Source: Patescibacteria group bacterium
GTDB lineage: Bacteria; Patescibacteriota; Gracilibacteria; JAHISY01
Assembly: GCA_043812055.1 (NCBI GenBank)
Contig: JBDRMN010000014.1
Location: 1-56,272 of the forward strand
Direction of reading: 5' to 3'
DNA length: 56,272 nt
Positions 46,407 to 47,036 of this stretch are shown in pieces. Each line of letters begins with the position of its first letter. The stretch's first letter is position 1. The notes below the pieces were generated by a model. The model did not search any database. It saw nothing but the letters and a program-made list of their open reading frames with translations, and was not told the origin of the DNA. The position numbers and the translations under genes are program-made.

Positions 46407-46574
46407 TCAAACACAACAACCTCCATCGCAGCAAAGCGTCTTTAACGCTTTGAGCTTTTCCTCGAATTTCGCGATGTCCGCCTTTTTGCCCGAGAACGTG
46501 ATCTCGAGCTTTTCGCCGCGATTTTTCATCTCAAATTTGAGATTCTCGCAGCAGTTTTTGAAAGAGTGGAACAT
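46407..46574 (-). CDS. small Cys-rich protein (55 aa: MFHSFKNCCENLKFEMKNRGEKLEITFSGKKADIAKFEEKLKALKTLCCDGGCCV)
   Basis: ATG-to-TGA ORF below the track cutoff. CC pairs at both ends. It sits downstream of the ArsR-type gene behind a consensus promoter. Confidence 0.5.
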   Translation of the reverse strand: MFHSFKNCCENLKFEMKNRGEKLEITFSGKKADIAKFEEKLKALKTLCCDGGCCV

Positions 46575-46599
46575 GGGGAAGGGATTAAGAAATGAAAAA

Positions 46600-46635
46600 C
46601 CTTAGAAAAAGCAGGTGGTGCTAATACCTGCTTCG
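46600..46635 (-). terminator. intrinsic terminator/attenuator (minus strand)
   Basis: On the minus strand: AAGCAGGT-attagcacc-ACCTGCTT followed by TTTCT, between the 11-codon ORF and the 55-aa ORF. Confidence 0.6.
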
Positions 46636-46640
46636 AATGT

Positions 46641-46676
46641 TTAACTGCAGCATCCGCCTGCGTAGTTCTCAGTCAT
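46641..46676 (-). CDS. 11-codon mini-ORF (MTENYAGGCCS), candidate leader peptide
   Basis: An ATG about 25 nt downstream of the predicted transcription start. Two adjacent Cys codons, followed immediately by a terminator hairpin. Confidence 0.3.
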   Translation of the reverse strand: MTENYAGGCCS

Positions 46677-46708
46677 GGTAATGGGGGTTAGAGAATAAAT
46701 CCACCCCC

Positions 46709-46738
46709 ATTATATATTGATAGATTTCAATATGTCAA
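46709..46738 (-). promoter_or_regulatory. sigma-70 consensus promoter (TTGACA-18-TATAAT) with an inverted-repeat operator in the spacer
   Basis: The minus strand reads TTGACATATTGAAATCTATCAATATATAAT. The inverted repeat ATATTGA-N6-TCAATAT (46714-46733) fills the spacer. It starts 2 nt after the ArsR stop. Confidence 0.7.
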
Positions 46739-46739
46739 T

Positions 46740-47036
46740 CTATTTCTGCTTGCAATTACAGCCAAAGAATTTCATAAAACCAAGGCAGCAATTGGCGATC
46801 GCATCCTGCGCGAGAGTGTAATAACACTCTTTTTGCTTCTTCTGCGCAGTGATAATCCCTGCCTCACAGAGAATCTTCAAGTGGTGGGAGACCGTGGGCT
46901 GGGAAAGCTTCATCTTTTTTACAATGCCGCTTGCATTTAAGCTTCCTTTCTCGCGCAGCAAACGCAGAATCTCCTGGCGGTTCGGGTCGTGAACCGCTTT
47001 AAAAAATTTCATCCATTCTTTGGGGCAACAGCGCAT
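46740..47036 (-). CDS. ArsR/SmtB family metal- or redox-sensing transcriptional repressor
   Basis: Winged-helix core (HDPNRQEILRLL....LNASGIVKKMKLSQPTVSHHLKIL) with Cys-rich termini (MRCCP...; ...CCLGFMKFFGCNC). Confidence 0.85.
   Translation of the reverse strand: MRCCPKEWMKFFKAVHDPNRQEILRLLREKGSLNASGIVKKMKLSQPTVSHHLKILCEAGIITAQKKQKECYYTLAQDAIANCCLGFMKFFGCNCKQK

Follow-up and report, generated by a model that had tools for sequence, protein, structure and literature searches.

Results

A small repressor module between purC and purE

We analyzed a 56,272-nucleotide (nt) stretch of DNA, here called the window, which comprises positions 1 to 56,272 of contig JBDRMN010000014.1 in the Patescibacteria group bacterium assembly GCA_043812055.1. 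Between the genes purC and purE, its minus strand carries a small module. Read directly, the elements follow one another in the order arsR, promoter/operator, leader hairpin, an 11-codon open reading frame (ORF; here the mini-ORF), a second hairpin, and an ORF for a 55–amino acid (aa) protein (Table 1). An earlier, sequence-only reading of this DNA had described an ArsR/SmtB-family gene on the minus strand, the 11-codon ORF, a hairpin with a short T-run, and a 55-aa ORF with CC at residues 8 and 9 and a CC..CC end, all flanked by purC and purE, and each of these is present. It had also placed a TTGACA-18-TATAAT promoter 2 nt after the arsR stop codon; the promoter is there, but it begins 1 nt after the stop. 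For comparison, we assembled a set of about 30 related loci (given L numbers where they must be told apart), and all relatives come from metagenomic contigs.

Table 1. Coordinates of the module and its flanks in the window.
Feature	Position	Strand	Description
arsR	47036..46740	-	98-aa ArsR/SmtB-family repressor, distinct subfamily
O2, operator-like site	47036-47063	-	Directly upstream of arsR start codon; match to position weight matrix
Effector promoter TTGACA-18-TATAAT	46738..46709	-	12/12 consensus match
Operator O1, ATATTGA-AATCTA-TCAATAT	46733..46714	.	7-6-7 palindrome filling the promoter spacer; exact pattern match
5'-terminal leader hairpin, GGGGGUGG...UAACCCCC	46708..46683	-	Start of predicted transcript; fold -13.1 kcal/mol
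Mini-ORF, MTENYAGGCCS	46676..46641	-	11 codons, 2 Cys
Inter-cistronic hairpin, GAAGCAGGU-9 nt-ACCUGCUUU	46634..46608	-	9 base pairs, 9-nt loop; UUCU after (to 46603)
55-aa ORF	46574..46407	-	CC at residues 8-9; C terminus CCDGGCCV
Hairpin CCACCC-N6-GGGTGG	46273..46290	.	Between module and purC; from terminator scan; fold -14.5 kcal/mol
purC	45210..46205	+	Convergent flank
purE	real start 47155	+	Divergent flank; MKALLILG start, placed by Pfam match and relatives
purE ORF as called mechanically	47020-47538	+	172 aa from TTG; overlaps arsR start

The repressor belongs to a distinct ArsR subfamily

The 98-aa protein is a member of the ArsR/SmtB family, with an HTH_5 winged helix-turn-helix above curated thresholds (Pfam HTH_5: E = 3.7e-16, 59.2 bits, cut-off 22; NCBIfam NF033788, ArsR/SmtB metalloregulator: 76.5 bits, cut-off 55). 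Its best relative in the PDB is SrnR (7p6f, E = 6e-11), followed by ArsR, HlyU, CzrA, SmtB, BigR, and CadC; the SmtB structures 1r22 and 1smt, as well as 6j0e, were among the matches. The AlphaFold2 (AF2) model, which has a predicted local distance difference test score (pLDDT) of 86.7, shows the order a1-a2-a3-a4-wing-a5, as in the family. Residue 16 lies at the end of helix 1, and the short helix 5 (residues 77 to 81) is followed by a CC pair.

A protein search returned 51 relatives, about 30 of them close. Among 28 aligned homologs, the vicinal pair C83-C84 is invariant within the motif CCxGF, and position 16, within FFKAV(C/H)D, is either Cys or His. Most members also carry an N-terminal C(C)PKxW, with the start pattern M..C(C)PKxW.KFFKA. 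The window protein begins MRCC and thus has this N-terminal CCP, for which the gene caller had substituted a start at Met9. Because the N terminus is kept in homologs, the true translation start is 47036. Note that a scan of genome contigs with the full ArsR alignment gave only generic ArsR genes at 45% identity or less, with no true relatives among them; the metagenome scan for loci of the subfamily used an alignment of the ArsR N terminus only.

The exchange of Cys for His at position 16 suggests a metal ligand. Together with C83-C84 and the N-terminal Cys of most members, this residue forms a candidate sensing site. The exchange, the His-rich N termini of the effectors described below, and third ligands that are not conserved lead us to lean away from As(III) and toward a soft or borderline metal cation as the putative inducer.

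A consensus promoter with a probable operator in its spacer

The effector promoter is the sole 12/12 site in the 56 kb, and none arose in 100 shuffles. The same 30-nt promoter/operator geometry recurs in 21 of 23 related loci, and the O1 spacer is kept although the ArsR proteins have diverged to ~45 to 60% identity. We therefore regard the spacer as the phylogenetic footprint of an operator, in line with the repressor-in-promoter layout of the sequence-only reading. The conservation of the elements in relatives excludes chance as an explanation for the module. No viral contig matched the operator pattern.

A second operator-like site, O2, precedes arsR. Scored with a position weight matrix built from the promoter/operator sites, it ranks third of 9962 locus positions, behind only the two strands of O1, and it matches the operator pattern with three mismatches at 47036-47055. 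A conserved hexamer, TAAGAT or TAAAAT, precedes the site, and the element as a whole spans 47036..47065. Most related loci likewise have a second operator-like site before arsR, from which we infer autoregulation of the repressor gene. O2 would then mark a weak, autoregulated arsR promoter, and the effector promoter would be very strong and tightly controlled. Judged by these sites, an ArsR repressor acting on an operator-promoter is very probably the regulatory architecture of the locus.

The 55-aa protein belongs to an unannotated family with Cys-rich tails

The 55-aa protein had been set down by the sequence-only reading as belonging to no family that it recognized, and a K-mer protein search returned only the query itself. 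This orphan appearance is an artifact of sensitivity, overturned by an exhaustive HMMER search that found 12 small relatives. A profile of these 12 recovered at least 90 clusters (41 to 150 aa), so that the protein is one of an unannotated family and not a lone oddity. No Pfam domain is present in any of the 90 clusters, nor does any bear a credible functional name. Where a source is named, it is a Microgenomates or Roizmanbacteria metagenome-assembled genome.

Across 81 aligned members, on which all family statistics rest, the median length is 57 aa and the median Cys count is six. A vicinal CC occurs in the C-terminal tail of all but one member (80 of 81), and in 70 of 81 a CC falls within the last four residues; 77 of 81 carry Cys or His in their N-terminal segment. 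Gly, Asp, and Glu abound in the tails (CCGGSGCC and CGEDCDCGCSCC are examples), and many N termini are rich in His. The AF2 model of the window protein (pLDDT 75) has a helix at residues 3 to 11, strands at 13 to 18 and 23 to 28, a helix at 31 to 49, and a tail of lower confidence; the predicted family fold is thus probably a helix/beta-hairpin/helix core with a flexible Cys tail. Compared with its nearest homolog, in L088, the gene shows a nonsynonymous divergence (dN) of 0.163 and a synonymous divergence (dS) of 0.56 over 37 codons, which is consistent with purifying selection.

We found no structural or profile relative. Foldseek against the PDB gave no match below E = 0.5, and a PDB profile search gave nothing below E = 0.0026, the match at that value being unrelated. 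The window protein matches no Pfam family; a Pfam scan of the 81 members revealed no common family, only seven stray matches, each in a single member, and NCBIfam gave nothing. By sequence and profile membership, then, the protein is not a metallothionein of the BmtA/SmtA type. Its candidate traits of a functional metallothionein are of another kind: a median of six Cys in 57 aa, the tail CC, and control by a repressor of the metal-sensor type. One family member carries the JGI label "translation initiation factor SUI1," which neither profile nor fold searches support and which we rejected.

Repressor and small gene recur together

Of the 22 ArsR-subfamily loci first examined, 16 have a gene of the 55-aa family as the next gene after arsR, on its strand and behind the operator-promoter; among the other six, four contigs end too early to judge. 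Two further loci match this pattern. Conversely, two arbitrarily chosen family members on long contigs both have an HTH_5 gene directly upstream. Wherever the sequence extends far enough, this ArsR subfamily, its operator-promoter, and a small Cys-rich gene occur together, which supports the SmtB-SmtA-like logic that the sequence-only reading had proposed. Of the synteny envisaged there, the pairing of ArsR, operator, and Cys-rich protein recurs, but the combination of ArsR, mini-ORF, hairpin, and Cys-rich protein is confined to the window. Because its flanking genes change between loci, with neither a transporter nor an ars gene linked, the pair of arsR and small gene is self-contained.

In L110-L112 (the P0133 loci), a 98-aa gene at 1782-2078 with a weak match to RNHCP (PF12647) lies just upstream of the ArsR/small-protein pair and, on the opposite strand, adjoins genes for an ABC ATPase and a membrane-fusion protein of the RND type. 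This neighborhood is the only transporter hint near any module member.

The mini-ORF has longer, stand-alone relatives

At the same position and distance from the promoter, three sister lineages carry ORFs for Gly/Cys peptides of 15 to 17 aa with five to six Cys: MSGGCCSKNGGGCTSC in L002/L003, MTGGNGCCKCGGNGCGC in L004, and MTAGCCKCEGGCCGC in L102-104. These lineages lack the 55-aa family gene. Instead, the peptide ORF ends ~25 to 33 nt before a strong terminator (-19 to -22 kcal/mol), with no downstream gene on the strand. In a 321-kb relative of L002, the peptide strand is empty from the peptide ORF to the convergent purC, so that the repressor-controlled promoter can express the peptide only.

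Short-word BLAST showed that the leader and start of the window mini-ORF are homologous to those of the L002, L004, and L102 cassettes (GGGTGGATTTATTC, GATTTATTCTCTAACCC, and CCCCATTACCATGACTG). An ATG ACT start and the leader are common to all, so that four lineages carry the peptide. Among the peptide genes, both the CC pair (TGC or TGT codons) and Gly (GGA, GGT, or GGC) persist despite synonymous changes. The GGCCS motif of the window mini-ORF is identical to that of L002. Among the 404 ATG-initiated ORFs of 8 to 25 codons in the window, CC occurs in only seven (1.7%), and G-x0-1-CC occurs in the mini-ORF alone.

On this homology, we take the mini-ORF to be the shortest ortholog of a group of stand-alone Gly/Cys peptide genes and not a leader peptide. 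The sister orthologs, being longer, richer in Cys, and without a gene behind them, encode a product and not a sensor. Gene callers overlooked the mini-ORFs entirely. The window is the only locus that carries both the peptide ORF and the family gene, split by a weak hairpin. A duplication of the 3' end of the family gene as a source of the mini-ORF and hairpin was also searched for with short-word BLAST; homology was confined to the leader and start, with none for the hairpin. A reading of the peptide as a precursor of a ribosomally synthesized and post-translationally modified peptide was dropped, as no locus has a linked modifying enzyme.

In a neighbor-joining tree of the repressors, the mini-ORF loci fall in one clade, {L102, (L002, L004), (L001, L088, window)}, and all outgroups carry the family gene only. 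L088, the nearest relative of the window, is without a mini-ORF. From these distributions, the simplest history would be that the peptide arose ahead of the family gene, that the family gene was lost in some lineages and the peptide in L088, and that the window keeps both.

Hairpins and translation signals

The 3' arm of the leader hairpin contains the TAAC-type initiation motif of the genome. Related leaders keep a 5' stem through differing sequences (GGGG/CCCC, AGGGU/ACCCU, and AAAGAU/AUCUUU); of those compared, L001, L002, L088, L089, L102, L105, and L106 have the hairpin and L004 does not. It may stabilize the mRNA or mask initiation.

The inter-cistronic hairpin folds at -11.4 kcal/mol, compared with -17 to -22 kcal/mol for the terminal terminators of most relatives (L105, at -11.9, is similar). 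Its loop is longer than the 8 nt that the terminator scan of the window allows, which is why the scan did not call it. There is no promoter between this hairpin and the 55-aa gene, which is therefore expressed by read-through or not at all. The hairpin is probably a weak, leaky terminator or a 3' stabilizer that would favor the first cistron. At permissive E values, Rfam gave only chance-level matches over 46150-47250, and a known riboswitch or leader is absent.

The genome is essentially without Shine-Dalgarno sites, which precede only 3 of 39 window genes (long ORFs). Instead, TTAA, CTAA, and TAAC are enriched at about -12 to -15; TTAA alone occurs in 43% of upstream regions against a background of 8%. 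A TAA motif stands at -14 of the mini-ORF and at -13 of the 55-aa ORF. Upstream regions in the window are also depleted in G, for example, those of 28833-30299, 17840-18625, 43208-44752, and 45210-46205. Distant relatives of the module (L086, L094, and L097-L099) possess GGAGG sites.

Some relatives have an insertion of ~170 nt between the operator-promoter and the family gene (L092, ~1030-1190; L093, ~2350-2500), and L107-L109 have a 209-nt gap. Situated in the 5' untranslated region, the insertion contains long inverted repeats (GTCATCCTGAGCAT...GGGATCAGAATGAC) with inner CCCGAC...GTCGGG pairs and resembles a miniature mobile or structured element.

Neighboring genes

The mechanical call of purE runs into arsR. 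Relatives of 127 to 128 aa and the Pfam match move its start to the position given in Table 1, which leaves a divergent intergenic region of 118 nt. At its 3' end, purE runs 41 nt into the end of a convergent gene of the HATPase_c_2 type (RsbW-like anti-sigma kinase; 47498-48043, minus strand). Further on, a small 84-aa ORF (48279-48533, plus strand) has a response-regulator gene (49015-49695) nearby. In the syntenic 321-kb relative, two adjoining 85-aa genes occupy the equivalent place, one with a weak YafQ-toxin match, which suggests a toxin-antitoxin-like pair beside the neighborhood of the module.

On the other side, the hairpin between the module and purC is likely a bidirectional terminator shared by both. 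A 10/12 promoter-like site, TTGACA-16-TAAATT (46313-46340, minus strand), lies ~20 nt upstream of this hairpin, within the 200 nt that separate the 55-aa gene from purC. Only a tiny transcript would be possible from it, the region of site and hairpin (minus strand) has no Rfam match, and the site is probably due to chance. In the L002 lineage, a 46-aa ORF (...VNTAQEAVKALDAGEIPFRVVEERKEVEKAIVEEK; L002 814-945, minus strand) lies downstream of purC on the strand opposite arsR. It is present on the 321-kb contig of P0005 and has no counterpart in the window. Beyond purC, NusA (43208-44752, minus strand) has a low-complexity C-terminal extension of ~170 aa with an extreme content of Lys, Glu, and Asp, a tail mirrored in the 493- to 523-aa NusA genes of syntenic relatives.

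Discussion

A candidate mechanism for metal(loid) buffering

The analysis in silico shows the parts of the module and how they are conserved, the pairing of the genes, their coding signatures, and how weak the inter-cistronic hairpin is. The reading that we favor, and hold to be rather probable, is that of a self-contained, autoregulated ArsR/SmtB stress module with thiol-rich, metal(loid)-binding mini-protein effectors. A dimer of ArsR would bind two related 20–base pair sites, O1 and O2. At O1, within the spacer of a sigma-70-type promoter, it would shut out RNA polymerase; at O2, which overlaps the weak promoter and start region of arsR, it would limit its own synthesis. A thiophilic ligand, such as a soft metal ion or a metalloid, would bind Cys83-Cys84 with Cys/His16 and/or the N-terminal Cys and so release the repressor. 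The induced strong promoter would then yield an mRNA with a stabilizing 5' hairpin, encoding the 11-aa Gly/Cys peptide first and, by read-through of the weak hairpin, the 55-aa protein as well. The clustered thiols of both products could bind and buffer the inducing metal(loid), a metallothionein-like function outside that family. As to this last step, sequestration of metal(loid)s by the Cys tails seems to us an even call.

Several points weigh against this interpretation. Metagenomic contigs are the source of all the evidence. The loci examined have no linked transporter, reductase, or other resistance gene that would point to the inducing ligand. The small protein has a fold with no structural or profile relative from which to borrow a function. 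Efficient termination at the hairpin would leave the 55-aa gene without a promoter of its own. Furthermore, the window peptide has two Cys, against five to six in relatives, and may be a decaying copy.

Alternative explanations

This last point can be extended to a different account, in which the mini-ORF and hairpin are what is left of a decaying peptide cassette, the peptide has no function of its own, and the 55-aa protein is the sole effector. The window peptide is indeed shorter (11 aa) than those of L002, L004, and L102, the DNA beyond its stop codon does not resemble the conserved 3' region and terminator common to L004 and L102, and L088 manages without a mini-ORF. However, the start codon, leader, TAA initiation motif, and GGCCS motif are all intact, and the ORF with G-x0-1-CC at exactly this site is the sole one of its kind among the 404 short ORFs of the window. 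We judge decay unlikely.

We give still less credence to the attenuation that the sequence-only reading had proposed, by which the mini-ORF would be a leader peptide whose two Cys codons tune termination at the hairpin through the supply of Cys-tRNA, placing the 55-aa protein under dual control. The geometry would permit it: the mini-ORF stop lies 6 nt before the hairpin stem, the first base of which is the seventh nt after the stop, so that a terminating ribosome would overlap the 5' arm and a Cys-stalled one would not. Withholding a Cys-rich product when Cys is scarce also makes physiological sense, and polycysteine leaderless short ORFs are proven Cys-responsive attenuators in mycobacteria (bioRxiv 10.1101/834739). 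As there, a tiny ORF with adjacent Cys codons is followed by an RNA structure and then a gene on the same mRNA. Unlike there, the ORF in the window has a 5' leader, and its orthologs in three sister lineages are stand-alone genes, each encoding a terminal product before a strong terminator. The arrangement is not conserved, with a leader ORF in 0 of 18 other loci with the family gene, and the downstream gene does not belong to Cys metabolism. Folding of the mini-ORF and hairpin region also predicted no antiterminator or other competing structure; the minimum free energy and centroid folds show the hairpin only, with a z-score of just -1.35.

A different stimulus is conceivable, too. The module could sense thiol-reactive stress (oxidants, electrophiles, or persulfides) in the manner of BigR or SqrR, with the Cys products as sacrificial thiol buffers or sulfur carriers. 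The conserved sensor residues are Cys, no metal transporter is linked in the loci examined, and bacteria of the candidate phyla radiation (CPR) inhabit sulfidic, anoxic settings. There is also a match to the NCBIfam BigR model, albeit a weak one (33.4 bits, far under the cut-off of 155). Nevertheless, the invariant Cys of the sensor form a vicinal pair, and many tails end in one. Vicinal Cys have a geometry that is good for metal(loid) chelation and poor for intramolecular disulfides. The Cys/His exchange in the sensor, the His-rich N termini, and the acidic, Gly-rich tails are typical of metal ligand sets, and sulfide-oxidation genes (sqr, pdo, and rhodanese) are not linked. Thiol stress as the signal therefore strikes us as improbable.

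Significance and a possible origin of minimal peptides

The metal(loid)-buffering reading leads to a bolder proposal, which we offer tentatively as doubtful but worth stating. The 11- to 17-residue Gly/Cys peptides (MSGGCCSKNGGGCTSC and relatives) might be stand-alone, repressor-controlled metal(loid) buffers, and as such the smallest metallothionein-type gene products known. They would have arisen beside the Cys-tail mini-protein in Microgenomates-type bacteria and replaced it in some lineages, with the window as a transitional two-effector state in which a leaky hairpin sets the product ratio.

Both effector families are unnamed and have so far been seen only in uncultured Microgenomates-type bacteria. 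We found nothing relevant in the literature on this module in CPR bacteria. The CPR and Microgenomates have tiny genomes and nearly no characterized stress physiology, for which the module offers a compact, unstudied case. Within two or three cistrons, its control logic is fully readable (two operators, a perfect promoter, and no Shine-Dalgarno site), and the chemistry of its effectors, clustered thiols in two unannotated families, is obvious. The peptides can be synthesized and the repressor and operator moved into Escherichia coli, which makes the system directly testable. If our reading is true, then it yields minimal peptides that bind metal(loid)s, as a new class, together with a new type of ArsR sensing site and a worked case of a folded mini-protein replaced by its bare functional tail. 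The window would be a rare intermediate that holds both effectors, one of them related to 15- to 17-residue peptides that gene callers miss.

Comparison with known systems

The arsenic metallochaperone ArsD is a small cytosolic protein of ~120 aa that adopts a thioredoxin-like fold, has functional vicinal Cys pairs (some in its C-terminal tail), and works with the ArsA ATPase; it is encoded beside ArsR. The 55-aa protein is likewise small, has vicinal Cys in its C-terminal tail, and is encoded next to an ArsR. It differs in that ArsA is absent and in having no sequence or fold similarity to ArsD, as far as the lack of a match in the searches made can tell.

Three types of As(III) site are described for ArsR repressors: type 1 (R773), a CxCxxC (Cys32, Cys34, and Cys37) located within the DNA-binding region; type 2 (AfArsR), Cys95, Cys96, and Cys102; and type 3 (CgArsR), Cys15 and Cys16 with Cys55' of the partner chain (PMC11868830). 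A type 1 site is absent here, as neither the window protein nor the subfamily consensus has a Cys in helices 2 and 3 (residues 18 to 42). The module ArsR resembles AfArsR in the vicinal Cys pair at the C-terminal end of the dimerization region. The window protein also contains C92 and C94; across the subfamily, however, no third C-terminal Cys is conserved at the AfArsR spacing. As in AfArsR and CgArsR, the candidate ligand residues lie at helix ends. The N-terminal vicinal pair, present in the window and in many relatives, recalls CgArsR; however, the equivalent of Cys55 (about residues 30 to 32 in the 6j0e alignment) holds no Cys. In contrast to all these sites, position 16 holds Cys in some members and His in others, and the module has no linked ars gene (arsB/acr3, arsC, or arsM).

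The nearest parallels are SmtB-SmtA of Synechococcus and AzuR-NmtA of Anabaena, in which an ArsR/SmtB repressor controls a bacterial metallothionein gene (PMC8790569). As in those systems, the repressor gene adjoins a small Cys-rich gene, a putative inverted-repeat operator lies in or over the promoter, the repressor is apparently autoregulated, and the putative effector is a cytosolic, thiol-rich protein of about 55 aa and not a pump. Unlike SmtB-SmtA, the genes are in tandem and not divergent, and the candidate sensor site is Cys-based (CC83-84) in place of the Asp/His helix-5 site of SmtB. The effectors have no BmtA/SmtA match in Pfam or the PDB, and the larger of them is predicted to combine a folded helix/hairpin/helix core with a Cys tail, at only about six Cys. 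Thus, the control logic is a known one, and the two effector families, both unannotated, are what is new.

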